A stretch of DNA of 64,000 nt from a virus, in the IMG/VR virus record IMGVR_UViG_3300045988_122521. One strand, given 5' to 3'. Shown here one piece after another: positions 33,717 through 57,031 of the stretch (the first letter of the stretch is position 1; every line of letters begins with the position of its first letter). The position numbers were made by a program, and so were the translations under genes. Under the pieces are notes generated by a model. That model was not told the DNA's origin, did not search any database, and saw only the letters and a program-made list of their open reading frames with translations.

Positions 33717-33729
33717 TAAAAAGGAGATG

Positions 33730-41650: not shown

Positions 41651-41698
41651 ATAATAGCACACCGTGTAAACACACATTTCACCGCTTTTTTGAAAAAA
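41651..41698 (-). promoter_or_regulatory. Composite promoter-like motif, copy 4
   Basis: Minus strand reads TTTTTTCAAAAAAGCGGTGAAATGTGTGTTTACACGGTGTGCTATTAT. About 60 nt upstream of the GTG at 41593. Confidence 0.45.
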
Positions 41699-42136
41699 TA
41701 ATGCAGGGTATCACCCCTGCTTCGCCTACATATGGCCCGTCCCACAGCCACGCGCCACAAAGGTCGTTTCCCTCCCTCACATACATGGCGCTATGCGCCC
41801 GCCGAAATTTTATTTTTTTGCCCCGCCCTTTTGGCGGGTTCCTTTTTTCGCTCCGGTTTCAAAACCACCCCCACCTCCTAACTTGCCTGTAAATTGCCGT
41901 AGCAGCGTCCATTGTTCTTATTACTGCATAAAAACCGCGAGAAGTGACGTGTAAGGGAACATTCGTGGGGGGAGGAGAGTTAAGCGCCGCGGGCGCTTTC
42001 CGCCGCCCCTCCGGATTGTAAACCACCCCCCCCCACCGGTGCCGCGCGGCAGTGGCTACGGGCGGCGATGGCCGTCGCAGGGTTGCCCGTCCTGCATTTT
42101 TGCGCCATTTTTGCAAGAATATTGCATCACGCCGCC

Positions 42137-42177
42137 GGTTTCCGTGCGCATTATTGTATATAATGCAAACGGAAACC
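42137..42177. repeat. 41-nt inverted repeat around an AT-rich centre
   Basis: GGTTTCCGT-gc-GCATTAT-tgtat-ATAATGC-aa-ACGGAAACC. Contains a TATAAT-like hexamer. Confidence 0.6.
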
Positions 42178-42821
42178 ACTTTTCCTTGCAAGTTTTCTTG
42201 CGTTCCGGGTTTTAGAGGCGTTCCGTCCGTTCTCATAGCAGGGGTTCGCCGCCCTCGGCGGTGTGGCGGTCGGTGTCTGGCGGATGGTCAAGGCGTGGCC
42301 CTGCTCCCGCTCCGCCTGCCGCCTGTCTCTGCGCCGGTGGCTGTTGGCCCCGAACATTGGCCGCGGGGTGACTCCTCTCCCCTCCTCCCTCCGCCGCTCT
42401 TTTTCGGTGGAGATGGTCGCCCGCTGGTGGTGGCTGCTCTGCTCTGGTGCTCTCCTTCTCCGGCTGTCCTGTTGGGGGCTTTGGCTCTCGGTTCTTCTCT
42501 GCTGGGGGTGGTTATATACGGTAGTATATTTAAGTGTTTTCAACCGCGCCCGCAATTAACGCGCGCGCACGCGTGAGGGGCTGCCGCTGCTCTTTCCCGC
42601 TCCTTTGCCCTCTGCGGGGCCGCTGGCGGCGTTTTAGCCTGGGGTCTGGTGTCGGGGCATTCCTTCGACGCTTGGAAAGCGTGGCGGGGCGTTTCTGCCC
42701 GTTTTCTATATTTCCGGCGGCATTGTCAAAAATCCGCACGGGCATAAAATTAGCGCCGCTGGGGCGGTTTTGGTTCCGTCCTGGCGGTGCTGGTTTGGGC
42801 TCTTCGGTTGTCTGTTTTGGG

Positions 42822-43097
42822 TCAGGCGGTGACGATCTCGGCGGGGCTGGGGCTGCCGTGGAAGTCTCCGGCCCACGCCTGATATATTGCGCCGTGTTCC
42901 CCTACTGCCGTTACCCATCCGCGCACGGTGGCGGCCATACGGCACGGGACGCGGGGCCAGCGGCGGCCCACGTCAAGCCAGATTTGCAGGCCGTCCGCTG
43001 CTGCGGCTCTGATCTCCGCGGCGGTGTATAGCTGTGCTTTACCCTCTGGGGCGATGTTGTACAGGGTTCCCGGGCTGGTGGTGTTGTTGGTCGTCAT
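42822..43097 (-). CDS. Hypothetical protein
   Basis: 91-aa ORF. Confidence 0.4.
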   Translation of the reverse strand: MTTNNTTSPGTLYNIAPEGKAQLYTAAEIRAAAADGLQIWLDVGRRWPRVPCRMAATVRGWVTAVGEHGAIYQAWAGDFHGSPSPAEIVTA

Positions 43098-43140
43098 GGT
43101 GTCTTGTCTCCTTCCTGCGCCTTGCTGGGCGCGTCCGTGG

Positions 43141-43401
43141 TTAGTCCTCTATGATCTCGCAGCAGATGCCGCCGTCCAGGCTCTGGCATACGATGCCCGC
43201 GCCGTATCGCCTTAAAAAGTCGTTCAGCTCGTCCCGGTCAAGGTACCTTTCCCCTTGGTCGTCCTCGGTGTACCAGTGTTCCACGGCGGCGAAAACGTGG
43301 ATTTCCTCCGGGTAGTATAGGCCGATGTATTCGGCCAGCTCTTCCAGGTTGCGGAACTCCAAAAAGCGCCCCGCCTCCTGTTTCTGCTCGGTCCTGCTCA
43401 T
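43141..43401 (-). CDS. Hypothetical acidic protein
   Basis: 86-aa ORF with a 4-nt overlap with the upstream gene. Confidence 0.5.
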   Translation of the reverse strand: MSRTEQKQEAGRFLEFRNLEELAEYIGLYYPEEIHVFAAVEHWYTEDDQGERYLDRDELNDFLRRYGAGIVCQSLDGGICCEIIED

Positions 43402-44006
43402 GCTTCCGCCTCCTCTCCCTGCTGGGCGTGGTAGCGCTCCCGCATAGCCCGCAGCCGCTTAGATACGGCTTGATGACTCATCATCAGGGCCGCGCCGATC
43501 TCCTCGACGGTGTAGCCCTTGGCGGTCATGGTCAATATAACGCGGTCGGACTGGTCGCGGGCGACGCTCTCCACGCTCTCGCGGATGATGGCGGCGCTTT
43601 CGGGGCTGGGGGCCACGGCGTCACACGCCGCGCCGCCCTCCGTGTCGATCTGCCAGCGCTCCGCGCCGTCGTCGTCTACGGTGGCGGAGATGGCGCGGGC
43701 GTGTCTCTGCTCCGCTCTGCTGATGCTGTGCGCGGCCTGGGCCGCTGCGCGGTACAGGATTACAGACAGCGGCGCGGGGTCCTCCTGCGTCTCGTTGCGC
43801 GTCAGGGCGGCGGGGATCCGCGTCCAGGCATCGGCGGCGACGGTCTGCGCGTCGTCCTCCGTCTCAATCCATGCCGCGCCCGTCTGGTTGCGGGCCTCCG
43901 CGCGGCGGCGGACGGTCCAGGCCATCGCCACCAGCGCGTCAAACTGCCGCTCTCCGGTCATCTGCGCCCATTCGGCGCGGGCGGTCTTGGTGTTAATCTT
44001 AGTCAT
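43398..44006 (-). CDS. Sigma-factor-like / region-4 HTH regulator
   Basis: C-terminal DRVILTMTAKGYTVEEIGAALMMSHQAVSKRLRAMRE. 202 aa. Confidence 0.55.
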   Translation of the reverse strand: MTKINTKTARAEWAQMTGERQFDALVAMAWTVRRRAEARNQTGAAWIETEDDAQTVAADAWTRIPAALTRNETQEDPAPLSVILYRAAAQAAHSISRAEQRHARAISATVDDDGAERWQIDTEGGAACDAVAPSPESAAIIRESVESVARDQSDRVILTMTAKGYTVEEIGAALMMSHQAVSKRLRAMRERYHAQQGEEAEA

Positions 44007-44472
44007 GGTTTGTTTCCTCCTTGATTTTTTGCCTCATTCCGGTTATACTCAAGGCGGCGGGGGTAAGGCTCCCCGCTCACCTTTTGGTGTGGGTCTGCGG
44101 TGTGCTTTGGTCGGCGATCCGCAGGCCCTTTTTTATTCGGCCTTAGCGGCCCTAATCATTCGGGCAGCTTCTTCCGGTGTGGTCGCGGTGGTTTCCACCA
44201 GCCGCGCCAGCGTTTCCAGAAACGCGTTAAACTCGGCGTTCGTCATCCCGTCGGGCATTTCCTCACTTCCTTTCAAAAGAGGCTCGCGGTTTTTTCCTCT
44301 GCCTTACATTTAATATTATAAACTGTGTGGTTTATTTTTTCAATTGTATAGTTTAACAAAATATTTATCTTTTATTTGTGTGGCTTGACAAAAGCAATAA
44401 AATAGTTTATTTTGGTTGCAAAATGACGGCCCGCCGGTAGACTATACAGCGAGGCCGCAGGAGGTGAAAGAA

Positions 44473-44733
44473 ATGCAGACATCAAAACTTATCCGGCGCG
44501 TGCTTCTTGAACAAGACTTTAACGCCGCCCAGTTGGCGGCAAAAATCGGAACAAGCCCGCAGAACTTGGGGCAAAAGCTCCGGCGTGATAGCTGGAGCGT
44601 TTCGGATCTGGCCGACATTGCCGCCGCCCTGGGCTGCGGCTTCTCCGTGTCCTTCCACCTGCCGGACGGTCAGACGTTGAGCGCAGAGCAGCCCGCCCCC
44701 ACCAGCGACACCGGCACCACCCCCAACACCTGA
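44473..44733 (+). CDS. XRE-family HTH protein
   Basis: Start MQTSKLIRRVL with an AGGAGG RBS. FNAAQLAAKIGTSPQNLGQKLRR. Confidence 0.65.
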   Translation: MQTSKLIRRVLLEQDFNAAQLAAKIGTSPQNLGQKLRRDSWSVSDLADIAAALGCGFSVSFHLPDGQTLSAEQPAPTSDTGTTPNT

Positions 44734-44768
44734 ACAGCGCCCCGCGCTTTTTGCGGGGAAACAAGAAC

Positions 44769-44802
44769 AGCGCCCCCAGAAATTTTCTGGGAGCGCTTTT
44801 TT
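44769..44802 (+). terminator. Rho-independent terminator
   Basis: AGCGCCCCCAGAAA/TTTCTGGGAGCGCT followed by T6. Confidence 0.6.
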
Positions 44803-44834
44803 CATGCCCTGAACAGGGCGGAAAGGAGAACACC

Positions 44835-45269
44835 ATGCAGAATCTTTTGAAATTTGAGGACATCCGCACCGGCGGCGCGTATATCGCCGTTACCACCTCC
44901 GGCGACCTGTTCGCCGCCAGCTACAGCGAGGATCATAAAAATATGTTCTTCGCCATCCCGTCAACGTATCAGATCGCAGGGTATCGCCCCGCCGACCTGG
45001 ACGAGGGCGACCGCGTGCGCGTCCACCTGTACGACAACAGCGGGCGGGAGATCGTGACGCGCCATTTCGGCGACGTGTTCACCGTCCGGCGGGAATCCGG
45101 GCGGCTGGGCATCGACTGGAACACCGAGCGCAGCCCCTACACCAGCCGCGGCGAGGTGTTCGCCCCGCTTTCCACCTTTGCACCCTCCGTCATCTTCGAG
45201 CAGATCGGCACGGGGTATAAATTCTATTGGGACAACATCACGAACAGCATCAAGCGAAAGGAGCGCTAA
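44835..45269 (+). CDS. Hypothetical protein
   Basis: Start MQNLLKFEDIRTGG with an AAAGGAG RBS. 144 aa. Confidence 0.55.
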   Translation: MQNLLKFEDIRTGGAYIAVTTSGDLFAASYSEDHKNMFFAIPSTYQIAGYRPADLDEGDRVRVHLYDNSGREIVTRHFGDVFTVRRESGRLGIDWNTERSPYTSRGEVFAPLSTFAPSVIFEQIGTGYKFYWDNITNSIKRKER

Positions 45270-45273
45270 AAAA

Positions 45274-45375
45274 ATGACTCTAATTTCATACATCGTCACC
45301 GCCACCGGCGCCGCCACTCTGGCGGCGTTTTTTGTTCGCCTGCTGGATCGCATCGACCGCCCCGGCAAGCGCTGA
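45274..45375 (+). CDS. Small hydrophobic peptide
   Basis: 33 aa, MTLISYIVTATGAATLAAFFVRLLDRIDRPGKR. Starts 5 nt after the previous stop. Confidence 0.3.
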   Translation: MTLISYIVTATGAATLAAFFVRLLDRIDRPGKR

Positions 45376-45432
45376 ACAGCCGCTCCGCCGCCTCTGGGGA
45401 GTTGGGCGCACCAGCTCCACCCCAGCGAGAAA

Positions 45433-45472
45433 AGTAAATTTTGCCGCCCGTGTTTACACGGCGGCGCATACT
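45433..45472 (+). promoter_or_regulatory. Composite promoter-like motif, copy 1 (weaker upstream half)
   Basis: GTGTTTACACGG at 45450-45461, then CGGCG-CATACT. About 25 nt before the 45493 start. Confidence 0.4.
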
Positions 45473-45492
45473 GAAAACAGGAGGAACACCAC

Positions 45493-46779
45493 ATGAACAC
45501 CATCAAAACCGAGTCCATCCGTTTCTATTGGAACGGGATCAAGATCAACGGCGGAAAACTGACCCGCTGCGGGTACTACACCAGCGACACCGAGACCAGC
45601 GCCAGCGTTACCATCTTCGCCCGCGATTGCGGCCGCCTGCCCCGCGACCTGTTCGCCGTTAAAAATGATACAGACCTTTACACCGACTATTTCGACAGCG
45701 ACCGCGCCACCCTAACCCCCGAACACCCGCTCTACAAGTACGCCCGCGCCGCCGCCCTGAAGTCCGCCATGCGCGGCGAGCCGGAGTATATAGCCCATCT
45801 GGAACAGGCGGAACAGGACGCCAAGACCCCCGGCCGCTACCATTGGCGCAGCGCGGACGCCATCCGCGCCGAGATCGACCAGCGGCAGGCGCAATTTGAC
45901 CGCAACGCCGCCGAGCTGGCCACGCTGCCCAAGGGACACCCCACCGCCGCCGACGTGGAAGCCGTCCACGAGATGAACACCGCCGCCGAGTCGGCGCGGC
46001 TGGCGCGTGAACACGCCGAACAGCTGGAACGCCGGGAAAAGGCCATCCGCACCCGCAACGAGAACCGCGCTTTCATCGAACAGACTGCCGCCGCACACCC
46101 CATCAAGGACGGCGCCCCGGTCGTCACCGTAGAATGGAGCGAAAACGGCGCTTTTGATGATGGTATGAAATTCTCCGTCGCCGCCGCCGAGATCATTTTC
46201 AAGACGCTGGACGAAAAAATTTCCGCCGGTCAGGAACGCGGCTATGACAAAACCAGCTTTTCCATTGCGTATACCGACGCCGACGGCGAGCCGAGCACCT
46301 ATGAAGGGCGCTATGATCTGGGTGACAACGACGGCGGGCTCATCGCCCACATTCGCAGCTTTGGCGCGTTCCTGCGCGACAAGGGCAATTTTGGCAGCGG
46401 CAAGCCCACCGACGAGGAAAAGGAGACCGGCGCGGCCATCGTTGCCGTGGCTGACCTGCTGGAACAGTACACCGAGGGCGGGCGCGTGGTCTCCGTCATG
46501 CCCGCGCCATGGCTGGAAGAATGCCAGCGCCGCAAGGCTGAACAGGCACAGCAGGAGCAGGAACAGGCCCGCCAGGACTTCGCCGACATTCTGGAATCGG
46601 TGCAAATGCTGACGGATGAACAGATTGAACGTGCTGTTTTCGCCATCAGCCCCACCGACGCGAAAAAGCTGGACGTGGCCCGCTTCTTCCTGCAGGAGCT
46701 CAGCCGCCGCGACGAGGCAAACGCCCTGGCGGTGTTCCGTCGCTGGAAGCGCGGCGAAAATCCCGAACAGCCCGACTAA
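45493..46779 (+). CDS. Large hypothetical protein of the type seen in Firmicutes mobile-element accessory regions
   Basis: 428 aa. No catalytic motif recognised. Confidence 0.55.
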   Translation: MNTIKTESIRFYWNGIKINGGKLTRCGYYTSDTETSASVTIFARDCGRLPRDLFAVKNDTDLYTDYFDSDRATLTPEHPLYKYARAAALKSAMRGEPEYIAHLEQAEQDAKTPGRYHWRSADAIRAEIDQRQAQFDRNAAELATLPKGHPTAADVEAVHEMNTAAESARLAREHAEQLERREKAIRTRNENRAFIEQTAAAHPIKDGAPVVTVEWSENGAFDDGMKFSVAAAEIIFKTLDEKISAGQERGYDKTSFSIAYTDADGEPSTYEGRYDLGDNDGGLIAHIRSFGAFLRDKGNFGSGKPTDEEKETGAAIVAVADLLEQYTEGGRVVSVMPAPWLEECQRRKAEQAQQEQEQARQDFADILESVQMLTDEQIERAVFAISPTDAKKLDVARFFLQELSRRDEANALAVFRRWKRGENPEQPD

Positions 46780-46842
46780 AAAATCCACATCCCCACCACG
46801 AACAGCCCGCCCCGGAGGTCACGAGGGCAGAAAGGAAACAAA

Positions 46843-47193
46843 ATGAACGACCGCACCGCCGCCACCGCCGCCCGCTTTGGCATTACGGAACAGTGCGCCG
46901 CGCTGGAGCGCGACCTGCTGGACATTCCCTGCGCCGTCGAGGTGGAATTTGACCTTGATGGATTCTATGACCACCTGCAGCAGGTGATCCTGCTGGTGAA
47001 ATTCGACATTCCCGCCGCGAACAGGGACTATTTCCGCGACCTTGCCACCCTGCGTCAAGGCGTGATCGACACCGCCGCCGCGCACGGCCTGACTCGCACC
47101 CCAGACACCATCGAGAACTACGGCGAGCACCTGTATTTCGTTTTCCACCACGGCAGCACATGGGACCACCCCATGACCGAACAGCCCGACTAA
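46843..47193 (+). CDS. Hypothetical protein
   Basis: 116 aa. Ends EQPD with the same 16 nt as the previous gene. Confidence 0.5.
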   Translation: MNDRTAATAARFGITEQCAALERDLLDIPCAVEVEFDLDGFYDHLQQVILLVKFDIPAANRDYFRDLATLRQGVIDTAAAHGLTRTPDTIENYGEHLYFVFHHGSTWDHPMTEQPD

Positions 47194-47218
47194 ACCACTA
47201 CAGCAAGGAGGAAACCGC

Positions 47219-47593
47219 ATGAACACCGAACGCAAAAACTGGATTTGCACCGATCCCGACTGTGCCCAATACCGCCGCCAGGCGCCGGAACACGGCCACA
47301 ACGTCTTTGAGCTGGCACAGGTAAACCAATACGGCGCCGGCCTGTTCCGCGTCGCCCACGGTTTTGTCTATCTCGACAACGACTTAGACGGGCGCGAGCG
47401 CGACTCGCTGTGCGAGCTGTACGACTGGGACACAGAGATCATCAACAGCCCCGACTTCAACGCGATTTTGGCCGAGACAGTTTTCGAGACATCCGCCCCA
47501 GAGTACGACACCGACGCAGAATTTCCCACCTATACGAACGCCGCCCAGGCATTAGGCCGACTCATAGGTGTTGACGTTTCCGCCATCATCTGA
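47219..47593 (+). CDS. Hypothetical protein
   Basis: 124 aa. Confidence 0.5.
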   Translation: MNTERKNWICTDPDCAQYRRQAPEHGHNVFELAQVNQYGAGLFRVAHGFVYLDNDLDGRERDSLCELYDWDTEIINSPDFNAILAETVFETSAPEYDTDAEFPTYTNAAQALGRLIGVDVSAII

Positions 47594-47614
47594 ACAACGA
47601 AAGGAGAAATCACC

Positions 47615-48445
47615 ATGTCCACCATCAAGTATCCCATCCCGGAGGCGTCCGCCGCCCGCGCCCACTGCGCCGCCATCGCTGCCAATGCCGCCGTTTTGAA
47701 AGACGTTATCACCGGCGACCCCACCAGCGACACCGCTACCAACGCCATTTCCGCCATCCGCCACAGCCTGGACGAGCTGGAAGCCTACGCCGAACAGCGC
47801 CGTCAGGAAAACAGCGAACAGCGCGACGATACCCCCTATAAGCACGTCTATTTCCGCCTGAACTCCGGTTATGTATGGGGCAAGGGAATGGACCAGGACA
47901 AGACCGAGAATTTCTATAGCGACATTTTGACCCTGTTCGCCGCCGAAGGCTGGACGATCACCCAGCCGTACCGGAACGGCAACGGCGCCGCCGTCGCCAA
48001 TGGGAACAGCTCCCTTTATATCCACCCCCAGGCGGTCAGCGGCTACGTCACCGAGGATTTGATCCCCGCCGTTTCCGCCGCGCTGGAACACGGCTGCACC
48101 TTCCAGCACTACGCCACCGACATCTACGATACCGCCTATAACTGGACGGCCCGGCAGTACCGGGACTATCTGCACAGCAAGCGCGGCGACATCAACGCCG
48201 CCCTGCTGGAAGCCTTCAAAACGCCCCGGCGCAACCTCTATAAATTCGACTACAACGCCCTGCCCGTGGTCATCAGCAAATTCCACGTCCAGCGCCTGGA
48301 CGGGCAGAACGGCCATTGCACCGGCGACATCACCGAGCAGGTCATCCGCGAAATGTTCACCGCCCTTGTGAACACCGGCAGGATCGACAAGGGCGAGACC
48401 AAACACGGCCCCGCCTACCGCACCGCCCCCAAGCGGCGCACATGA
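47615..48445 (+). CDS. Hypothetical protein
   Basis: 276 aa. Confidence 0.55.
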   Translation: MSTIKYPIPEASAARAHCAAIAANAAVLKDVITGDPTSDTATNAISAIRHSLDELEAYAEQRRQENSEQRDDTPYKHVYFRLNSGYVWGKGMDQDKTENFYSDILTLFAAEGWTITQPYRNGNGAAVANGNSSLYIHPQAVSGYVTEDLIPAVSAALEHGCTFQHYATDIYDTAYNWTARQYRDYLHSKRGDINAALLEAFKTPRRNLYKFDYNALPVVISKFHVQRLDGQNGHCTGDITEQVIREMFTALVNTGRIDKGETKHGPAYRTAPKRRT

Positions 48446-48466
48446 ACAGAAAGGAGGAACCACGCC

Positions 48467-48688
48467 ATGCCCACACGACCCGCCATCCGCACCGATACCA
48501 CCGAACAGGAGCGCCAGCACCTTCTGGCCGTCGCCGCCGCCCTGCGCACCGCCGCGCCGTATCTGAGCCGTGAACAGCGCCAGCACCTCCGCCAGACGGC
48601 GGATCGCTGCATCGAACACCACCGCCGCACGGCCCACACCGCCGAGCTGGCCGCGCTCATCGCCCAGCGCGACGCCCTCACCGCCTGA
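48467..48688 (+). CDS. Hypothetical protein
   Basis: 73 aa. Confidence 0.45.
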   Translation: MPTRPAIRTDTTEQERQHLLAVAAALRTAAPYLSREQRQHLRQTADRCIEHHRRTAHTAELAALIAQRDALTA

Positions 48689-48724
48689 ACACCAAACCAA
48701 AAATCTACAAGGAGGCCACCGCCC

Positions 48725-50626
48725 ATGTTTACCTACGCCACCAAGAAAAACCGTTACGGTGATGAACACATCGCCGTATTTGCCAACGGCTCCCAGATTG
48801 CCGAGATCAAGCCAAGCTCCTACTATGGCAAAAATGAGTACATCGTCAGCGCCACCATCGGCGACGACGACCGCGGCGACTGCCTGGGCCGCACCTCCAC
48901 CATCGCCGGGGCGAAAAAGAAGGTACGCGCCTGGTACAGCGAACACAGCGACGCCGTGGCCGCTGCCGCAGCGAACAGCCGCGCCGCCGATCTCCGCCGC
49001 CTGCCCTCCTTCGACAACAGCGGCTTTTACCCCACCCCATCCAAACTGGCGGGGAAAATGCTCGCCTGCGTGTCCTGGGAAGGCGTCTATGCCATCCTGG
49101 AGCCCTCTGCCGGAAAAGGCGACCTGGCCGACGCCGTAGATCGCCACATCCGCGCCCGCCGGAATAAGATCAGCAGCCGTATTTATATCGACGCCGACGA
49201 GCCGTATCTGGACTGCATCGAGCGCGACAGCGACCTTGCTGCCCTCCTGCGCGGCAAGGGGCGGCACGTGGTCCACGACGATTTTCTCACCTTCCGCAGT
49301 TGCAAGCAGTACGACCTCTGCATCATGAATCCGCCCTTCGACAACGGCGACGAACACCTTTTACACGCCCTGTCCATCATGGAGCGCGGCGGCCAGATCG
49401 TCTGCCTGCTGAACGCGGAAACCATACGCAATCCCTACACCAACCGCCGCAAAATTCTCTTGCATCAGCTGCGCGAACACAGTGCCCGCATTGAATTCAT
49501 TGAAAACGCCTTCCGCCATGCCCAGCGCCCCACCGACGTGGAGATCGCGCTGGTCTATGTGAACATACCAAAAAAAGAAGTCCCCAGCGACATCCTGTCC
49601 TCCCTCCGCCGCGCCATCGAAAAGAGCACCCCAAACAGTGAACAGGCCACCGGCCTCGCCTCCGCCGACTGGCTTCAGAACATGATCGACGGCTACAACT
49701 TCGAGGCCGCCCTGGGCGAAAAACTCATCAACGAGTTCGCCGCCCTCTGTCCCTACATGGACCCAGGCAACCAGCACGGCGAGCCCCTGTTGTCCCTCAA
49801 AGTGGGCGACAGGAACACCGGCAACAACGCAACTCTGCTGAACGCCTACCTATGCGGCCTGCGCGCCAAATATTGGGGAAACCTCCTCCAGCGTCCCGAA
49901 CTCACCAGCAAAATGACCTCCGCCATGCAGCAGGACTACAACGGCAAGGTCAATTCCCTTTCCGAGTACGACTTTTCCCGCTACAACATCGAAACCGTCA
50001 TGCGGGAGATCGCCCACCAGCTTTCCCGCGGCGTCGAGGATTCCATTCTTGAGCTGTTCGAGACATTCTCCGCCAAGCATTCCTGGTACCCGGAGTGCGC
50101 CAACAACATCCATTACTATAACGGCTGGGCGACGAACAAGGCCCACAAGGTGGGTATGAAGGTCATCATCCCCTCCAACGGCTGCCACGCCTCCTATGGC
50201 GGCGGTCTGGACGCTTGGCGGGTAAGCAGCCTCATATCCGATTTGGAGCGGGCAATGAACTATCTGGACAGAGGCGAAACCTCGTTCCACACGCCCATAG
50301 ACCACGCCGTCCGCATCGCCAACGAAGCCTACACCAACAAGGCAGATTTCACCTATTTTACCTGCACCTTCTACAAAAAGGGCACCTGCCACATCAAGTT
50401 TAAGCCGGAGGCGTCCCGCATCATCGACCGTCTGAACATCTTTGCCGGTCAGAAAAAGAACTGGCTGCCGCCCACCTACGGCAAAAAGCACTACGCCGAC
50501 ATGACCGCCGAAGAACAGGCCGTCATTGATGACTTCCAGGGTGCCGAGTCTTACGAAAAGACCATCGCCGACCCCTCCATGCTCATCACCTCCGGCAGCG
50601 CCCTCATGGCGCTGCCCGGAATGTGA
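48725..50626 (+). CDS. N6-adenine DNA methyltransferase with large C-terminal extension (orphan)
   Basis: FYPTPSKLAGKML, ILEPSAGKGDLA (motif I), CIMNPPFDNG (motif IV). About 380-aa C-terminal domain. No cognate endonuclease nearby. Confidence 0.7.
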   Translation: MFTYATKKNRYGDEHIAVFANGSQIAEIKPSSYYGKNEYIVSATIGDDDRGDCLGRTSTIAGAKKKVRAWYSEHSDAVAAAAANSRAADLRRLPSFDNSGFYPTPSKLAGKMLACVSWEGVYAILEPSAGKGDLADAVDRHIRARRNKISSRIYIDADEPYLDCIERDSDLAALLRGKGRHVVHDDFLTFRSCKQYDLCIMNPPFDNGDEHLLHALSIMERGGQIVCLLNAETIRNPYTNRRKILLHQLREHSARIEFIENAFRHAQRPTDVEIALVYVNIPKKEVPSDILSSLRRAIEKSTPNSEQATGLASADWLQNMIDGYNFEAALGEKLINEFAALCPYMDPGNQHGEPLLSLKVGDRNTGNNATLLNAYLCGLRAKYWGNLLQRPELTSKMTSAMQQDYNGKVNSLSEYDFSRYNIETVMREIAHQLSRGVEDSILELFETFSAKHSWYPECANNIHYYNGWATNKAHKVGMKVIIPSNGCHASYGGGLDAWRVSSLISDLERAMNYLDRGETSFHTPIDHAVRIANEAYTNKADFTYFTCTFYKKGTCHIKFKPEASRIIDRLNIFAGQKKNWLPPTYGKKHYADMTAEEQAVIDDFQGAESYEKTIADPSMLITSGSALMALPGM

Positions 50627-50656
50627 GCGAACACCACACGAAAGGAGCACCACACC

Positions 50657-51412
50657 ATGACCCCCGAAAAGCTTTTGGAAAACCTCTACGCCATCGCCTA
50701 TTCCCTCCCGGAACAGGAACGCCGCTTTTTCTGCGCGCTGGAACCTGCCATCGACCCATGCGGCGGTGACACGATCAACGCCGGCCACCAACTGGCGCTC
50801 CTGGTCCGCGCCATCCGCACCGATATGGCCCAGCAATACCGGAGAGACGATCAGCGCCGCACCCGTGATGCCGCCCTTCGCCGTATCGGCAGGGCATCCG
50901 CATCAAAGCAAGGCAAAATCCGTCCCCACTTCGCAGGCGCGTTTCTGGACGAGCAAGGCCGCCAGTGCGTCACAGACGGCTTCCTGCTCATCCGTCTGAA
51001 CACACCATCCAACGTGCTGGAATGGGCGCCCACGCCCAACGATCCCCACGTATACGATCACATCCCCGAACTCCTGAACAGCGCCGCGGCCACTGTCACG
51101 CTGACGCTCCCCACGGCGGCAGAAGTCCGCGCTAAGATCGCCAGCGACAAGGCGAAATTCAAAGCCTCCTCCCGTCCCAGGTACGAAAGCGTCTCCACCT
51201 GCTTTAACTGGGGAGACGGCCTGCCCATGGTCAATTCCATCTACCTGCTGGATATTCTGGAGGCGCTCCCTGGATGCACCGCCTCATGCCGCCCCGATGA
51301 GCTGTCCTGCGTCTATTTCCACAGTCCGGACGGTGACGCCATCATCATGCCCGTCCGCAAGTACATAACCCGCAGCGAAGAGGATTCCGACGAACAGGAG
51401 GAACAGGAATGA
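50657..51412 (+). CDS. Hypothetical protein (weak beta-clamp-domain-like motifs)
   Basis: 251 aa. CVTDGFLLIRL and the C-terminal AIIMPVRK recall sliding-clamp motifs, but this is speculative. Confidence 0.5.
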   Translation: MTPEKLLENLYAIAYSLPEQERRFFCALEPAIDPCGGDTINAGHQLALLVRAIRTDMAQQYRRDDQRRTRDAALRRIGRASASKQGKIRPHFAGAFLDEQGRQCVTDGFLLIRLNTPSNVLEWAPTPNDPHVYDHIPELLNSAAATVTLTLPTAAEVRAKIASDKAKFKASSRPRYESVSTCFNWGDGLPMVNSIYLLDILEALPGCTASCRPDELSCVYFHSPDGDAIIMPVRKYITRSEEDSDEQEEQE

Positions 51413-51600
51413 AAAACAAACTGTGCCCCTACAAGAAGACCTGCCGCGACATCTGCTACGGCGAAAATCCCTGTGCCTTTGCCAAAGCATTTGACGGCCT
51501 CGCCCGCAAGATCGACCTCAAGACTGTCTGCATAGAATCACTACGCGCCGAAAACGCCGCGCTGAAGGCGCGGCTGGAACAGGAGGAACACAACGTATGA
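51409..51600 (+). CDS. Small Cys-rich/coiled-coil protein (paralog of next gene)
   Basis: 63 aa, ..FDGLARKIDLKTVCIESLRAENAALKARLEQ. Confidence 0.5.
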   Translation: MKNKLCPYKKTCRDICYGENPCAFAKAFDGLARKIDLKTVCIESLRAENAALKARLEQEEHNV

Positions 51601-51884
51601 GCCACATCTGCAAAATGACCGGACTGGAGGCCGCACTGCCCTGTGCCGCCCCTCAGTGCCCCGCCTACGGCGATTGTGCCGCCGCCTATGAAAAATCCCA
51701 GCAGGGCTTCCAACTGGAACAGCGCCCCAAAACAAACCTTGAACACTTCCGCGAGATGACAGCCGAACAGCTGGCGGCGTGGATCATGTGCCCCTACTCC
51801 ATCGACCCCGACCTCTGCATCGGCAAGGACTGTATCAAGTGCTGCGCCGACTTCCTAAACGCGCCCTATGACGGTCTTGCTTGA
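51597..51884 (+). CDS. Cys-rich protein truncated by an in-frame TGA relative to its paralog
   Basis: Ends ..APYDGLA-TGA. The next 29 codons (to 51974) read KIDLKTSCTESLRAENAELKAKLKQSGVI, homologous to the paralog's C-terminus. Confidence 0.5.
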   Translation: MSHICKMTGLEAALPCAAPQCPAYGDCAAAYEKSQQGFQLEQRPKTNLEHFREMTAEQLAAWIMCPYSIDPDLCIGKDCIKCCADFLNAPYDGLA

Positions 51885-52060
51885 AAAATCGACTTGAAGA
51901 CATCCTGCACAGAATCCCTGCGTGCAGAAAATGCAGAGCTAAAGGCGAAGTTGAAGCAATCCGGCGTTATCTGACGCCCGCCGCTGAAAACTCCCCGTTG
52001 CACCCCCGGCAAAACCGTGATAAAATTAAGCAAAAGTAAATTTTCAAGGAGGAACAGAAC

Positions 52061-52381
52061 ATGGAGATCAACACCCACGGCAGAAAAATCAACTTGGAAA
52101 CATTGGCCAACGCCTCCGACTCCACCAAGGGACTCGGCTCCCGCACGGGGGAGTATGTGGAGATTTTTTACGACAAATCCACCGGCGATGTATGGGGAAA
52201 GTATCACTGGGATCGTGAAGAATGGACAGTCTATCACGATGAGGACGTTACAAAGGTCGGACTCGCCACCCGCTACAAGACCCAGCAGCAGATCGCGGAC
52301 ATGATCGACAACACCCTGACGGAGGACGAACAGACCGAGCGCGAAAACGCCGAGTATTTGAGAGGAGATTCTTGCACATGA
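52061..52381 (+). CDS. Hypothetical protein
   Basis: 106 aa. Confidence 0.5.
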   Translation: MEINTHGRKINLETLANASDSTKGLGSRTGEYVEIFYDKSTGDVWGKYHWDREEWTVYHDEDVTKVGLATRYKTQQQIADMIDNTLTEDEQTERENAEYLRGDSCT

Positions 52382-52914
52382 ACACGCAGGAGCTGATCCA
52401 GCGATACAAAATCGCCCTGAAAATTGACGAACACGGCCAGCCCACCGGGAATCTGGTTGTGTACCGCGCCGACAAAGCGGCTCTTGCCGCCATCAAAGCC
52501 GCAAAGCCGGAGATCGTCGCCGCCCTGCTGGCGCAGCGCGAAGCAGGGCTCCGCGCCGAACAGGAACGGCTGGCAAAAATCGACGCCATTCCCGGACTGC
52601 GGGAGATCGAAGCCGCCCGCATCGATCTGGTAAATTGGAAATTGGAATTTGACGCCAGCTTCGACGGCGAGAACGGCGGCGGTGTGGGCGTCCGCCCCAA
52701 GCCGAAGTATGACATGGACGCCATGTATGCCCAGTACCCTCGCGCCAAGGCATTTTTGGAAGCCCAAAACTTTGCCGAATCTGACAACGACGCAAAAGCT
52801 ACCGCCGGGAGAAAAGCACTGGAGGCCATCATCAACGGCGAAAACTACGAACAGGCCATCCACACCATGAACAGCGAGTGGGCGGCTTACTGCGAATCCC
52901 ACCTCTGGGATTGA
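52378..52914 (+). CDS. Hypothetical protein
   Basis: Start MNTQELIQRYK, with an ATGA overlap with the upstream stop. 178 aa. Confidence 0.5.
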   Translation: MNTQELIQRYKIALKIDEHGQPTGNLVVYRADKAALAAIKAAKPEIVAALLAQREAGLRAEQERLAKIDAIPGLREIEAARIDLVNWKLEFDASFDGENGGGVGVRPKPKYDMDAMYAQYPRAKAFLEAQNFAESDNDAKATAGRKALEAIINGENYEQAIHTMNSEWAAYCESHLWD

Positions 52915-53063
52915 CCCGAACCGCCGCCCACCTATCGACACGCGCGCCCCGCGCCCACGATCGACAAATAAGACCACCTGCCGGACGTGGGCGCGTTTTC
53001 CCTTTTTTTGTGCGAACAGCGCACATCGAAAATCCCGCAAAAAATGGAAAGGAGAGCAAAAAA

Positions 53064-53615
53064 ATGGCCCTCATCACCTGCCCGGAGTGTCACGGTCAGG
53101 TCAGCGACAAGGCCGCCGTTTGTCCGCATTGCGGATATTCAATCGGTGAACAGCCTCCCCGGCAAACCGAAGGCAAAGCAGAACAGGCAGACAATGCCGA
53201 ACATCAGTTTTGCATCGACCGCATACACGCCGGCAAGGTCTACATCAGCTGTAAATGCGGCTGCACCATCGAAAAGCCGTTTTCCTTTATCTCTCGGAAC
53301 AGCCAGGAAAGCTACACGCTGAACCAAACGTTGGTTTGCCCTCAATGTCATGCGGAGGCTTTGGCCAGAACGGATCTATCAAACGTCCCATCTAAGCGCA
53401 TAACCACGCCGCCTCCCCGTTACGGAAACGCCGATTCTGGCGTATGCCCGTTTTGCGGAAAACCCAACATCCAAACTGTCAAAAAAGGCTTCGGTATCGG
53501 CAAGGCTGCCGTTGGCGGTCTGCTACTTGGTCCTGTCGGTCTGTTGGGCGGCGCAATCGGTGCAAACAACATCCAGTTTGTTTGCCTCTCCTGCGGCCGA
53601 AAATGGAGTAAATAG
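53064..53615 (+). CDS. Multi-zinc-ribbon protein with C-terminal glycine-zipper membrane segment
   Basis: CPECHG..CPHCG, CPQCH, CPFCG, CLSCG, plus GIGKAAVGGLLLGPVGLLGGAIG. Confidence 0.55.
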   Translation: MALITCPECHGQVSDKAAVCPHCGYSIGEQPPRQTEGKAEQADNAEHQFCIDRIHAGKVYISCKCGCTIEKPFSFISRNSQESYTLNQTLVCPQCHAEALARTDLSNVPSKRITTPPPRYGNADSGVCPFCGKPNIQTVKKGFGIGKAAVGGLLLGPVGLLGGAIGANNIQFVCLSCGRKWSK

Positions 53616-53617
53616 CA

Positions 53618-53647
53618 AAACCCCGCGCGGCATCAGCCGCGCGGGGT
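53618..53647. terminator. Bidirectional terminator between convergent genes
   Basis: AACCCCGCGCGGC-atca-GCCGCGCGGGGTT. Confidence 0.6.
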
Positions 53648-53902
53648 TCATTTCTGCTGCACTATCTCATAGCAAGTGGGATCGTCTGACTTCCCATACA
53701 GTCCGCAAATGTCCCGGTTCTTACATTCACCGCATCTCCATCTGCGCTCTGTTCGTATCGCCGCAGCCACAAAGCAATCACAATGGTTGCCACGACGGTT
53801 ATACGTACAATACGAATTCCTGGCGCACATCTTACATGTCTGTTGCCCCCGATTTGCCGGATTCGCGCGGTTTCTGAACCCGAACGAGAATGGCCTGTAC
53901 AT
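53648..53902 (-). CDS. Small Cys-rich protein
   Basis: 84 aa with a GGGTGGAG RBS and several CxxC pairs. Confidence 0.4.
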   Translation of the reverse strand: MYRPFSFGFRNRANPANRGQQTCKMCARNSYCTYNRRGNHCDCFVAAAIRTERRWRCGECKNRDICGLYGKSDDPTCYEIVQQK

Positions 53903-53941
53903 CAAAACTCCACCCTTTCATTAAATTCTTGAAAATCTCTC

Positions 53942-53982
53942 TTGACATTTATGTCCGCACAATATATAATTGTTGTGCGGAC
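53942..53982 (+). promoter_or_regulatory. Sigma-70-type promoter with overlapping palindromic operator
   Basis: TTGACA(53942)-17 nt-TATAAT(53965). Perfect 10-bp inverted repeat GTCCGCACAA(53953)/TTGTGCGGAC(53973) spans the -10. Confidence 0.65.
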
Positions 53983-54001
53983 AACAAAAGGAGGTGCGTA
54001 T

Positions 54002-54166
54002 ATGTCCCCGAAGGCTGGGCGTCCGTTCTCCGATAACCCTAAAGCGGAAAGGCTCTATATCCGAGTGACCGCTGAAGAAAAAAAGCGTATCATGGACTTC
54101 TGCGATGAACACAAGGTTTCCGCTCTCGACCTGATACGCAAGGGAATGGACACTATAAAAAAATAG
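54002..54166 (+). CDS. Ribbon-helix-helix (CopG/MobC-like) protein
   Basis: MSPKAGRPFSDNPKAERLYIRVTAEEKKRIMDFC..KVSALDLIRKG. Probably autoregulates through the upstream palindrome. Confidence 0.5.
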   Translation: MSPKAGRPFSDNPKAERLYIRVTAEEKKRIMDFCDEHKVSALDLIRKGMDTIKK

Positions 54167-54254
54167 AACAATCGGTCAGCAGTTTGGCGACGGCCCCGAT
54201 TGTTCTATTCGCCAAAGCCGCATGGGCTTCGTCTAAATCTCATTATAGACGCCG

Positions 54255-54292
54255 CCCCTGCGAAAGTCAACAGCTTTCCGCAGGGGATTTTT
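54255..54292 (+). terminator. Rho-independent terminator
   Basis: CCCCTGCG..CGCAGGGG followed by ATTTTT. Confidence 0.55.
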
Positions 54293-54300
54293 GCGCCCAT

Positions 54301-54343
54301 TTTCAAAAATCCGCCTGTGGGTGTTTACACGGTGACGTATGAT
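54301..54343 (+). promoter_or_regulatory. Composite promoter-like motif, copy 2
   Basis: TTTCAAAAATCCGCCTGTGGGTGTTTACACGGTGACGTATGAT. About 40 nt before the rha-like start. Confidence 0.45.
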
Positions 54344-54381
54344 CCTCATACACAAAAAACTCATACAGGAGGATAAATTCA

Positions 54382-55176
54382 ATGAATGACCTATTGACCA
54401 TCAGCAACGGCCAGCCCACCGCCAGCAGCCGCGACATTGCGGGGCACTTCGGCAAGGGGCACAACCACGTCTTGCGCGACATTGACGCGCTGAAAGGAGA
54501 TGTGTCCAATTTTGGACAGATGTTCTTCGACACAGAAATCCCCGACAGCTACGGCAGGCCACAGCGAGCCTACCTTATGAACCGCGACGGCTTCACGCTC
54601 CTTGCCATGGGTTTCACTGGCAAGGAGGCGTTGGCGTGGAAGATGAAGTACATCAACGCCTTTAATGCCATGGAGCAGGAATTGCGCTCCCAGCAGCAGG
54701 GCTTGACCGAAGCGGATTTCTCCGCCCTGTCCTACGAGGCCCGCGCCATCATCAAGATGGAGCTTCAGCAGAAACAGCAGGCGAAACAGATCGCCGAACT
54801 GACCACCCAGCAGCAGGAGACGCGCACGATGGTGAACCAGACACTTTCTGCCATTACCCGCCCCTCTACTTCTGACGCAGAGGATTGGAAAGAGGACATC
54901 AACCACACCATCCGTCAGATGTGCGAGGAATACGGTCTCAACTACCACACCACCATCGGCGAGATGTACGCCGAATTGGAAAAGCTGGGCAGTGTCAACC
55001 TCAGCGTCCGGCAGAAAAATCTGCAAGCGCGTATGCGCCGCGGCGGTGCCACCGTGGCCGAGTGCCGCCGTATAAGCAAACTCCACGTCATCTCACAGGA
55101 AAAGAAACTGCGCTGGTTCTACGAAGGTATCGTCCGAGCCTACCGCGCCCAGCTTGCCGCCTCCCGTATGCACTGA
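54382..55176 (+). CDS. Rha-family phage regulatory protein
   Basis: The N-terminal TASSRDIAGHFGKGHNHVLRDIDAL matches the Phage_pRha pattern. Confidence 0.75.
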   Translation: MNDLLTISNGQPTASSRDIAGHFGKGHNHVLRDIDALKGDVSNFGQMFFDTEIPDSYGRPQRAYLMNRDGFTLLAMGFTGKEALAWKMKYINAFNAMEQELRSQQQGLTEADFSALSYEARAIIKMELQQKQQAKQIAELTTQQQETRTMVNQTLSAITRPSTSDAEDWKEDINHTIRQMCEEYGLNYHTTIGEMYAELEKLGSVNLSVRQKNLQARMRRGGATVAECRRISKLHVISQEKKLRWFYEGIVRAYRAQLAASRMH

Positions 55177-55303
55177 ACTCTTTGTGTCCGCTTTTCGGAC
55201 GGCTGCAACCAAACCGACGAAATTCGTCGCGCCGCCGCCTGATTACACCCTGTATACCCCCATTCACCCCATACACCATTTATACAACAGGAGGAAATTT
55301 ATC

Positions 55304-55522
55304 ATGACAGTTCTTGAAGCGTGCGCCATGCTGGAGCTTGGCGACGGCATCAAACCCAACATCGAACTTACCTTCGGCTCCAGTGGAGTTCCCTTTAACC
55401 CCAAAAACAGCCTTGAGATGATGGCCTACGGCGACTTCCTCATCGAAACCTGCCACGTCTGGGAGGGCGGCGTCAACCTCGTCCTCAAGCAGCAGTTCTG
55501 CAAGAAGAACTGGAACGCATAA
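55304..55522 (+). CDS. Hypothetical protein
   Basis: Start MTVLEACAMLELGDG with an AGGAGG RBS. 72 aa. Confidence 0.45.
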   Translation: MTVLEACAMLELGDGIKPNIELTFGSSGVPFNPKNSLEMMAYGDFLIETCHVWEGGVNLVLKQQFCKKNWNA

Positions 55523-55534
55523 GGGGGGGGCAGC

Positions 55535-55699
55535 ATGATTCCAGCAACCATCCAGATCGGTGATCCCGTCACCCAGTACATCGAAGCCACCAACCGCAAG
55601 GCCACCGGCAAGGTGATCTACATTCATCCTCTGCGCCGCTACTACATGGCGGAATTTTCCTTCCGTTTCGGCAAGTTCCGCGAGTGCTTTATGCTCTGA
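55535..55699 (+). CDS. Small hypothetical protein
   Basis: 54 aa, MIPATIQIGDPVTQYIEATNRKATGKVIYIHPLRRYYMAEFSF... Found by hand translation. Confidence 0.35.
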   Translation: MIPATIQIGDPVTQYIEATNRKATGKVIYIHPLRRYYMAEFSFRFGKFRECFML

Positions 55700-55704
55700 A
55701 AAAT

Positions 55705-55750
55705 TTTTCAAAAAAATCCCCCGAAAGGTGTTTACACGGTATGGTATCAT
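55705..55750 (+). promoter_or_regulatory. Composite promoter-like motif, copy 3 (heads the RNA island)
   Basis: TTTTTCAAAAAAATCCCCCGAAAGGTGTTTACACGGTATGGTATCAT. Confidence 0.45.
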
Positions 55751-55889: not shown

Positions 55890-55962
55890 GCAGATGTAGC
55901 TCAGTCGGTAGAGCACCGCGCCAGGAGGTATGTCGTTGGTTCGAGTCCAACCGTCTGCACCA
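55890..55962 (+). ncRNA. tRNA-like element 1 (canonical acceptor, D and T arms, CCA; aberrant 15-nt core)
   Basis: GCAGATG-TA-GCTC-AGTCGGTA-GAGC-AC[CGCGCCAGGAGGTAT]GTC-GTTGG-TTCGAGT-CCAAC-CGTCTGC-A-CCA. No 5-bp/7-nt anticodon arm is possible. Confidence 0.5.
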
Positions 55963-56787: not shown

Positions 56788-56792
56788 CGTGT

Positions 56793-57028: not shown

Positions 57029-57031
57029 TAC

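Follow-up and report, generated by a model that had tools for sequence, protein, structure and literature searches.

A conserved composite motif at candidate phage-specific promoters of an uncultivated human-gut phage

Phage-specific promoter classes are a known means of timing gene expression. For sigma-70-family holoenzymes the spacer is ~16-17 bp, dictated by the distance between sigma2 and sigma4 on the core enzyme. ECF promoters pair an AAC-type -35 with a CGT-type -10 at ~16-17 bp, and the group-5 sigmas TcdR, UviA and BotR use a TTTACA -35 hexamer with a normal spacer. Sigma-54 promoters carry GG at -24 and GC at -12, 10 nt apart. Phage sigma cascades, including those of SPO1 gp28 and phiEco32 gp36, use a ~17 bp spacer or a single -10-type element; to our knowledge, none of these promoters has a -35-like hexamer only 7-8 bp from its -10, nor are we aware of a characterised activator whose binding site lies 4-5 bp upstream of a -10 hexamer.

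Several phages act on the host polymerase in other ways. Middle promoters of T4 keep a host-type -10 and carry, in place of the -35, an asymmetric MotA box that is read by a monomer and serves post-early genes; its centre is at -30 and its distance from the sigma-70 -10 is 12 +/- 1 bp (PMC2988021). Ltr family II ('LtrA', Sigma70_r4) comprises late activators of Gram-positive phages, and Ltr proteins serve one promoter upstream of terS, with 7-nt direct repeats just after the ltr gene (Quiles-Puchalt 2013, PMC3753634). In Thermus phage P23-45, gp39 relocates sigma4 and yields -35-independent promoters with no new upstream box (PMC3950348).

Four intergenic copies of a composite motif

We analysed a 64-kb stretch of DNA (the window) that represents an uncultivated, temperate human-gut phage encoding an integrase and a CI-like repressor. 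An earlier note had reported GTGTTTACACGG at four sites, each followed after 5 nt by TATTAT, CATACT, TATGAT or TATCAT. This description holds in full: the 64 kb contain four exact copies (Table 1), the match count at <=2 mismatches was equalled in 0 of 100 dinucleotide-preserving shuffles, and direct reading of the sequence places a -10-like hexamer exactly 5 nt 3' of every copy. A scan of the window with a profile of 18 non-redundant family sites recovered only these four (W1-W4; E 8e-4 to 2.4e-3), with the next match at E 0.33. All four are intergenic and oriented toward the downstream unit, with a ribosome-binding site or tRNA at a distance of 20-140 nt; no copy was found inside transcription units. 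The composite heads separate units on both strands, as had been claimed, and terminator-like hairpins precede three of the four copies.

Table 1. Positions of the composite sites and associated features in the window (each box is an exact copy of GTGTTTACACGG)
Feature	Position	Strand	Details
W1, putative promoter	41651..41696	-	TTTTCAAAAA 41696-41687; box 41673-41662; spacer TGTGC; TATTAT 41656-41651
W2, putative promoter	45428..45472	+	A-rich GAGAAAAGTAAATTTT; box 45450-45461; spacer CGGCG; CATACT 45467-45472
W3, putative promoter	54300..54343	+	TTTTCAAAAA 54300-54309; box 54321-54332; spacer TGACG; TATGAT 54338-54343
W4, putative promoter	55705..55750	+	TTTTCAAAAA 55705-55714; box 55728-55739; spacer TATGG; TATCAT 55745-55750
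Terminator-like hairpin, U-run	41703..41720	-	Directly upstream of W1; -12.8 kcal/mol, z -3.3; end of early leftward unit
Terminator-like hairpin, U6	45307..45329	+	120 nt upstream of W2; -17.5 kcal/mol; end of early rightward unit
Terminator-like hairpin, AUUUUUG	54255..54294	+	Just 5' of W3; -21.7 kcal/mol, z -3.45
Early promoter, canonical host type	44343-44315	-	TTGAAA-17-TATAAT; divergent pair
Early promoter, canonical host type	44385-44413	+	TTGACA-17-TATTTT; divergent pair
P_D, third promoter class	44414..44447	+	GGTTGCAAAAT-N10-CGGTAGACTATAC; second copy 59018-59051
93-aa sigma region-4-only gene	41104..41385	-	Second gene downstream of W1; candidate reader
202-aa ECF-like sigma gene	43398..44006	-	Sigma2 and sigma4 domains; early leftward operon; candidate reader
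LPD25-domain gene	45493-46779		Downstream of W2
rha	54382-55176		Downstream of W3
tRNA cluster	55890..57381	+	Downstream of W4
Portal gene	9837-11639		

W1 (15.8 bits, E 7.7e-4), which also occurs in the relatives L038, L059, L116, L118 and L123, is followed by a small ORF, the region-4-only sigma gene, PAPS reductase and then the whole leftward arm. At W2 the box is a full palindrome (CCGTGTTTACACGG), and a GGAGG ribosome-binding site begins 7 nt past the hexamer, ahead of the ATG at 45493; the homologous site in relatives reads CCCTTGACACGG-GGAA-CAGACT. The tRNA cluster would be transcribed from W4. The earlier note had also placed TTTTCAAAAA upstream of three of the four boxes, and it is indeed found there, at gaps of 13, 11 and 13 nt. 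As such, however, it shows no conservation among relatives, in which upstream conservation is seen instead in an A-tract spanning -45..-41 with respect to the putative start. At W1, the T-run of TTTTCAAAAA has a second role, as U-tract of the terminator just upstream.

At W1, W4 and their relatives, a GCCRAAGGG leader is conserved 3' of the hexamer. It could signal an RNA-level role at those two sites, but it is missing at W2 and W3, and folding of the leaders gave no significant structure (z 0.17 and -0.11). The wider idea that the sites are not promoters at all, and instead are recombination, packaging or replication sites or an RNA-level element, is very improbable given that every copy is intergenic, co-oriented with a nearby gene start or tRNA and coupled to a -10-like hexamer.

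Conservation and spacing of the box

The composite is found at homologous positions in ~45 related phage contigs despite diverged flanks, in agreement with the element specificity suggested in the earlier note. Two forms occur, GTGTTTACACGG-N5 and CCCTTGACACGG-N4, which can be present together in one genome; the majority form in relatives is CCCTTGACACGG-N4-TAnAnT, as opposed to GTGTTTACACGG-N5-TATNAT in the window, and the box in most relatives reads TTGACA rather than TTTACA. An alignment of 18 non-redundant sites has an invariant TT.ACACGG, an A at hexamer position 2 in 18/18 and a T at position 6 in 17/18, and the distance between box and hexamer is fixed at 4-5 bp throughout. Between the TTKACA core and the hexamer there are 7-8 bp. 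Among 23 aligned sites, no base is conserved at -35..-30.

These features were compared with known promoter classes. The W-site hexamers have the TAnnnT pattern of a canonical sigma-70/sigmaA -10, but there is no -35 at 16-18 bp, which bears out the earlier remark that the motif does not fit sigma-70 geometry. The sites are not ECF promoters: no conserved element lies 16-17 bp to either side of the box, and the hexamer follows the TAnnnT pattern. Sigma-54 promoters are a poor match as well; TGACACG resembles TGGCACG, but GG is replaced by GA or TA, the GC element is lacking and the spacing exceeds theirs by 1-2 nt. An analogy with TcdR had been suggested on the basis of TTTACA, a hexamer that the TcdR/UviA/BotR promoters do share. 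It did not survive the comparison, because here the hexamer lies 8 bp from the -10, most relatives carry TTGACA and neither sigma-like protein gave an NCBIfam match narrower than the sigma-70/ECF superfamily.

Two arguments favour taking the TATNAT hexamer as the -10. If the box were instead a -35 with a 17-nt spacer, the W2 start would fall past the conserved GGAGG; moreover, only with the hexamer as -10 does the A-tract at -45..-41 match the established placement of UP elements relative to the promoter. On this assignment transcription would start ~7 nt past the hexamer, which would be a sigma-70-type -10 at -12..-7. The A-tract would occupy the place of an UP element, no -35 hexamer would be present, and the asymmetric box (GTG)TTTACACGG would span ~-29..-18 (TTKACACGG at ~-26..-18), followed by the 5-nt spacer. 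Its TTKACA core would thus be a -35 look-alike situated about one helical turn too near the -10. The layout is unusual: the -35-like hexamer, followed by a conserved CGG, lies 7-8 bp from a -10 of normal type, and a true -35 is absent.

Weak hexamers (CATACT, TAGACT, CAGACT) occur among the sites and, together with the lack of conservation at -35..-30, suggest that such promoters should need help. A TGn directly 5' of the hexamer, as in extended -10 promoters, is present at W1 and W4. One might accordingly ask whether the host sigma uses these sites as -35-less or extended -10 promoters, with the 12-mer acting as an asymmetric repressor operator that silences the units, for example in a lysogen. 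The phage does encode a CI-like repressor as well as an integrase, the box lies across part of the core promoter as an operator would, and mycobacteriophage L5 gp71 recognises comparable asymmetric 13-bp repressor sites containing TTGACA. We nevertheless regard this account as improbable: TGn is found at two of the four sites, the weak hexamers of most relatives lack it and would make poor promoters unaided, no box copies lie inside transcription units as stoperators would, and the fixed distance to the hexamer in 18/18 sites suggests a positive polymerase contact, not mere occlusion.

With the TTKACA core 7-8 bases from the -10 instead of ~17, a phage-made factor is probably needed to read the W-type promoters. 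The box is non-palindromic in most sites, which indicates a monomeric reader. Our leading, though still tentative, interpretation is that the four sites are phage-specific promoters, probably of the middle phase, that need a phage factor for the box, with the 93-aa region-4-only protein as the preferred reader. The -10 would be read by ordinary sigma region 2 within RNA polymerase, most likely that of the host main sigma, while a monomeric, phage-encoded helix-turn-helix of sigma-region-4 kind would read the box and replace the absent -35 contact. In this way the W sites would restart transcription past the terminators that close the early units and turn on the leftward arm, the 45493 operon, rha and the tRNA cluster. 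A more specific proposal seems rather unlikely: that a free-standing sigma region 4 supplied in trans (a 'split sigma') reads a -35-like TTGACA/TTTACA box situated one helical turn nearer the -10 than sigma-70-family holoenzymes permit, with region 2 of the host or phage sigma reading the -10. If so, polymerase would be redirected in a manner not described before.

Candidate readers of the box

Two sigma-like genes had been noted near W1, at 41104-41593 and 43398-44006. The second is a real ECF-like sigma gene, whereas the first consists of two out-of-frame overlapping ORFs, with sigma region 4 confined to the 93-aa product of 41104-41385. In NCBIfam, neither protein matched models more specific than the sigma-70/ECF superfamily, and the 202-aa protein fell below the cut-off of that model. 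The 93-aa protein matches Sigma70_r4_2 (E 1.4e-11) and scores 55 bits against the sigma70-ECF superfamily model (cut-off 43), covering model positions 91-165 only; further matches are YlxM and region 4 of FliA, SigF and SigE. Ten nt separate the end of its gene from PAPS reductase.

Every contig spanning both positions has the box together with the 93-aa protein, a co-occurrence that rests on pattern-based detection and on ~20 kb per distant-clade contig. In a clade at 45% identity the box is absent, and no 93-aa relatives were detected by the same pattern-based search of ~20 kb per contig, which a diverged orthologue could escape. Within the protein, covariation with the box variant is confined to C-terminal residues, WFSL versus QFCL, and is explained by linkage to a box copy 0.3 kb away. 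The gene itself lies downstream of W1, whereas a factor of this kind is usually encoded in an early operon; a positive loop would first need read-through or basal expression.

Compared with described systems, the proposed arrangement resembles the T4 middle promoters, at which AsiA and MotA appropriate sigma: a host-type -10 is kept, an asymmetric, monomer-read box replaces the -35, about half of the sites have TGn and the genes would be switched on after the early phase. It differs in that the box here ends 4-5 bp from the -10 and that the protein proposed to read it consists of sigma region 4, not of a double-wing fold; no MotA or AsiA homologues were found among the proteins scanned. With LtrA it shares a small phage protein whose sole recognisable domain is Sigma70_r4 and which is proposed to read promoter DNA, but the window has four scattered single boxes, each joined to a -10. 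We reject assignment to the Ltr late-promoter system, since the region-4 gene adjoins PAPS reductase instead of terS, repeats are lacking and the portal and packaging genes are ~25 kb away. Like gp39 of P23-45, the arrangement would free transcription from the -35 contact, although through a new upstream box; no gp39 relatives were detected.

The 202-aa protein is the other candidate. It gave weak Sigma70_ECF matches that fall below curated cut-offs and contains a conserved DDAQTVAADAW motif, which we take to resemble sigma region 2. Its AlphaFold model has a mean pLDDT of 78.5, and in a fold search of the PDB the best ~13 matches were all ECF sigmas, with probability up to 0.99 but E of only 5e-3 and low TM scores; judged from this predicted structure, it is a genuine two-domain ECF-like sigma. 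It could replace the host sigma and recognise both box and hexamer itself. Its gene follows a canonical early promoter just upstream of W1, and an early sigma gene just upstream of later promoters is the classic order of phage cascades, much as SPO1 gp28 and phiEco32 gp36 combine an early phage sigma with phage-specific promoters heading later units. The W sites, which begin units after terminators, are in keeping with such a cascade. The region-2 motifs are also conserved in the 45% clade, whose positionally equivalent 'class 2' sites have hexamers (TATGAT, TACGAT, CATACT) resembling those of W sites.

Even so, direct recognition by the 202-aa sigma is doubtful, and we place it behind the 93-aa protein. 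The geometry is wrong for a two-domain sigma, the box being 4-5 bp and its core 7-8 bp distant from the hexamer, and in the 45% clade the sigma is present but the box is missing. Natural recombinants uncouple the two: L038 has the other region-4 helix variant, yet all its sites are GTGTTTACACGG-type, and L059 has a sigma wholly of the other type beside a GTGTTTACACGG-type W1. The helix-turn-helix variant of the 202-aa sigma does not follow the box variant. The link between the motif and the two sigma-like genes drawn in the earlier note is not established by these comparisons, and the recombinants do not tell the two candidate readers apart. Finally, the GGTTGCAAAAT..CGGTAGACTATAC class, with its normal 16-nt spacing, is found with the 202-aa sigma in every clade and is a better fit to it than the box.

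Promoter classes across the phage lineage

This latter class, P_D, precedes a Cro-like HTH gene (ATG at 44473), occurs in conserved form at every family locus and is similar to GCGGGACAAAT..CCGGTAGCTATA of the 45%-identity clade. Host-type promoters of the canonical TTGACA-17-TATAAT kind are also present in the early control region of the same phage, so W1-W4 form a separate promoter class. The canonical early promoters and the terminators frame the W-headed units.

Together, three promoter classes, two sigma-like proteins and the terminators that bound the units provide a first regulatory map for an uncultivated, widespread lineage of human-gut phages (~60-90 kb). If the region-4-only protein reads the box, it would represent a new way of retargeting RNA polymerase and would provide a compact, orthogonal pair of promoter and factor.

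A repeated composite element in the window and its relatives

The box GTGTTTACACGG is present in four exact copies in the 64-kb window (W1-W4; Table). All four are intergenic and oriented toward their downstream units, and 5 nt to the 3' side of each lies a hexamer (TATTAT, CATACT, TATGAT or TATCAT); in three of the four, TTTTCAAAAA is found 11-13 nt upstream. This arrangement, described in an earlier note on the sequence, was confirmed. None of 100 dinucleotide-preserving shuffles reached the box count at two or fewer mismatches. A genome-wide motif scan, which that note had suggested as a check, was performed using a profile of 18 non-redundant family sites, and it recovered only the four sites in the window (E 8e-4 to 2.4e-3; next best match E 0.33).

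Coordinates of features in the window
Feature	Coordinates	Strand	Sequence, setting or downstream unit
Box W1	41662-41673	-	small ORF, then sigma-region-4-only gene, then PAPS reductase
Box W2	45450-45461	+	45493 operon (LPD25 domain in its first gene)
Box W3	54321-54332	+	rha
Box W4	55728-55739	+	cluster of four tRNA genes
W1 leader	41625-41644	-	GCCRAAGGG(A/C)
W4 leader	55753-55770	+	GCCRAAGGG(A/C)
Weak fifth site	38487-38509	+	TTGACACGA-N5-CATCAT
Canonical early promoter	44343-44315	-	TTGAAA-17-TATAAT; divergent early control region
Canonical early promoter	44385-44413	+	TTGACA-17-TATTTT; divergent early control region
Perfect canonical promoter	53942-53970		TTGACA-17-TATAAT
Convergent promoter	54270-54242		TTGACT-17-TATAAT; strand opposite to the preceding entry
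54-aa ORF	54002-54166		in cassette 53900-54300
Third promoter class	44414-44447	+	GGTTGCAAAAT-N10-CGGTAGACTATAC (TTGCAA, 16-nt spacer, TAGACT)
Third promoter class	59018-59051	+	as preceding
202-aa protein gene	43398-44006		early leftward operon
Region-4 ORF	41104-41454	-	93-aa product from 41104-41385
139-aa ORF	41174-41593	-	overlaps region-4 ORF
ORF-poor gap	41700-42820		between early leftward operon and W1
Low-GC island	30000-34000		mid leftward arm
Integrase	32467-33621		in low-GC island; opposite strand to leftward arm
CI-like repressor	31647-32258		in low-GC island; opposite strand to leftward arm
Ant	29813-30613		adjoins low-GC island
tRNA	55890-55959		
Degenerate tRNA 3'-end copy	56376-56406		
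tRNA genes (Asn, Trp)	5283-5606	-	among leftward-arm genes, just past portal

Two smaller features accompany these sites. A leader, GCCRAAGGG(A/C), begins 6-7 nt past the hexamer at W1 and W4 and is conserved in their relatives (e.g., at 18320-18340(-) and 30675-30690(+) of contig L001); it is lacking at W2 and W3, and no significant RNA fold was found in the W1 and W4 leaders. A weak fifth site, antisense within a minus-strand gene and with no ORF downstream, is kept in related contig L096 and is absent from the profile-model matches.

Viral and metagenome contigs were searched with two query proteins, the 202-aa sigma-like one and the 93-aa region-4 one. About 45 related contigs carry the composite at the same genomic places as the window, with neither its position nor its orientation varying across the family. 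The majority form among relatives is CCCTTGACACGG-N4-hexamer (TAGACT, CAGACT, CATACT, TATACT, TACAAT, TAGCAT, TATAAT or similar), and the minority form, GTGTTTACACGG-N5-TATNAT, is shared by the window with L038, L116, L118, L123, L004 and L059. Both forms are present in one genome, L118, at 5592(-), 4598(-) and 9717(+). In an alignment of 18 non-redundant sites, TT.ACACGG and the A at hexamer position 2 were invariant, and T occupied hexamer position 6 in 17. Only the W2 copy of the box is palindromic, asymmetry being the general rule. When 23 sites were aligned on the hexamer, an A-tract was apparent at -45..-41 (A in 14-18 of the 23) and no base was conserved at -35..-30. TTTTCAAAAA is thus a local variant of a less strictly defined A/T-rich element; at W1 its T-run doubles as the U-tract of the upstream terminator. 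For remoter relatives of the 93-aa protein (L093, L097, L099-L112), simple 9-mer counting revealed no repeated promoter-like motif.

Predicted promoter geometry of the box sites

Terminator-like hairpins with U-runs, closing the preceding units, lie upstream of three of the four box copies. Because canonical host-type promoters are found elsewhere in the same phage (Table), the four box sites form a class of their own. Taking the TTKACA core as a -35 element with a 17-nt spacer would put the start at W2 and in its relatives past a conserved GGAGG ribosome-binding site, and no conserved hexamer was found at 16-18 bp from the box. When the hexamer is taken as the -10, the predicted start falls just 5' of this GGAGG at W2, and the A-tract falls at the proximal UP-element subsite of bacterial promoters. 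This choice would place the TTKACA core at about -26..-21, approximately one helical turn nearer the -10 than a real -35, and in this respect the earlier statement that the composite does not fit sigma-70 -35/-10 geometry holds.

Sigma-54 promoters have a similar geometry (-24/-12), but the box sites lack their GG and GC dinucleotides; the reverse complement of the box does not match a Spo0A box. The previously suggested analogy with TcdR-type sigma factors was not sustained, as the spacing does not fit, TTGACA replaces TTTACA in most relatives, and among NCBIfam models neither sigma-like protein matched anything narrower than the general sigma-70/ECF superfamily model. We read the four sites, with starts predicted from sequence, as a genuine and conserved class of promoters that is specific to these phages and unusual in its geometry. 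That they are not promoters at all seems to us highly improbable. The asymmetric box might instead be a repressor operator placed on host promoters that lack a -35 element, which we regard as unlikely.

The phage and its probable host

MT835520.1, a human-faecal 'Bacteriophage sp.' contig of 58 kb that carries no annotation, is collinear with the 5.5-58 kb part of the window (88-90% identity), and among 50,697 phage records no relatives of the portal protein were found other than in this contig. The phage represents an uncultivated lineage. The only match in a genome scan was a 69-kb MAG contig with the label Staphylococcaceae; this contig probably represents the phage itself. Strong GGAGG sites, TTGACA/TATAAT promoters, and the Spo0A_C and SleB-type genes of related contigs suggest a Firmicute host, probably one of the spore-forming Clostridia.

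Leftward genes extend from ~44.3 down to 0.3 kb, rightward ones from 44.4 to 60.9 kb. The leftward arm encodes PAPS reductase, DNA methyltransferases, Ant, a DnaD-like loader, DnaB and portal, and is interrupted by a low-GC island (48-50% versus ~58% elsewhere). The 1.1-kb gap preceding W1 has no convincing ORF; its plus strand is rich in pyrimidines, and short inverted repeats occur within it (e.g., GCATTATTGTATATAATGC near 42148). All relatives, among them a clade with only 45% identity in the sigma, have a comparably sized gap after the sigma gene; an Rfam search of the gap in the window gave no match reaching a family's gathering score. In the cassette upstream of W3, the -10 of the perfect canonical promoter is flanked by an inverted repeat, TGTCCGCACAA..TTGTGCGGACA; this promoter drives the 54-aa ORF, and the convergent promoter is accompanied by a bidirectional hairpin. 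The tRNA at 55890-55959 was called by Rfam and missed by ARAGORN.

Candidate readers of the box

The 202-aa protein matches sigma models weakly by sequence. Its family alignment includes conserved DDAQTVAADAW and LYRAAAQAAHSISRAEQRH motifs, which we take to resemble sigma region 2, as well as a C-terminal helix-turn-helix. In the AlphaFold model (mean pLDDT 78.5), about the top 13 PDB matches are ECF sigma factors aligned over the whole length; match probabilities reach 0.99, yet E is only ~5e-3, and a difference in the orientation of the two domains keeps the TM scores low. We accept the protein as a divergent ECF-like sigma. Of the two sigma-like genes previously proposed, this one stands, whereas the other (41104-41593) comprises two ORFs that overlap out of frame, with a recognisable domain only in the 93-aa product. 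In sigma models, the latter matches the region-4 part alone, and its PDB matches are YlxM and region 4 of FliA, SigF and SigE. At the domain level it resembles the LtrA family of late regulators; however, those proteins act at one terS promoter, located immediately after their own gene, by way of 7-nt direct repeats (PMC3753634), an arrangement that differs from the setting here.

The overlapping 139-aa ORF has a strong ribosome-binding site and lies in the +1 frame relative to the region-4 ORF, as it also does in L038 and L044. Substitutions between relatives are conservative in its first ~65 residues but not in its tail. The overlap contains a G5 run (GAGAGGGGGTATT); frameshifting or slippage might fuse both ORFs here, or this may be a small gene that has no stop codon close by.

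Co-variation between box form and each of the two proteins was examined in natural recombinants. L038 has only GTGTTTACACGG-type sites, yet its 202-aa sigma has the other type of region-4 helix, and in L059 a sigma wholly of the other type lies beside a GTGTTTACACGG-type site; the helix variant thus does not track box form. Neither do the STIS/STVS residues of the 93-aa protein. Only its last few residues do so (WFSL versus QFCL), owing to linkage, a box copy being only 0.3 kb away. Given that L118 carries both box forms, the same single factor probably reads both, and co-variation therefore cannot name the reader.

The pattern across the 45% clade, sampled via loci L067-L071 and L157-L161, is more suggestive. 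These phages keep the 202-aa sigma together with a GCGGGACAAAT..CCGGTAGCTATA promoter class with normal 15-16-nt spacing; in the sampled loci the TTKACACGG box was not found, and neither, by pattern-based detection, was the 93-aa protein. The sigma thus seems to travel with the normally spaced class and the box with the region-4-only protein. The third promoter class of the window is conserved across the family, resembles the numerous GCGGGACAAAT..CCGGTAGCTATA sites of the 45% clade, and is a possible target of the 202-aa sigma. In L067 and L071, the places corresponding to W1-W4 are occupied by a different repeated composite, ATGTTGCATA..TTTGCTATGMT or TGTAACATAAWTCATTTTT-N8/9-TAYGAT/CATACT, whose -35-like hexamer is 19-21 bp from the -10, that is, too far rather than too close.

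A model in line with the earlier note, in which the 202-aa sigma reads the whole composite, is favored by the order of the cascade but disfavored by both the geometry and the phyletic pattern, and we rate it somewhat below the reading that follows. We tentatively favor a view in which these promoters, specific to the phage, depend on one of its own factors. An ordinary sigma region 2 would read the sigma-70-type -10, and the missing -35 contact would come from a phage helix-turn-helix of the region-4 type sitting on the box, most likely that of the 93-aa protein. One main weakness of this assignment is that the gene for the 93-aa protein is itself downstream of W1. The logic would be shared with sigma appropriation in T4, although the T4 MotA box is 12 +/- 1 bp from the -10 (PMC2988021), as compared with 4-5 bp for the box of this phage family.
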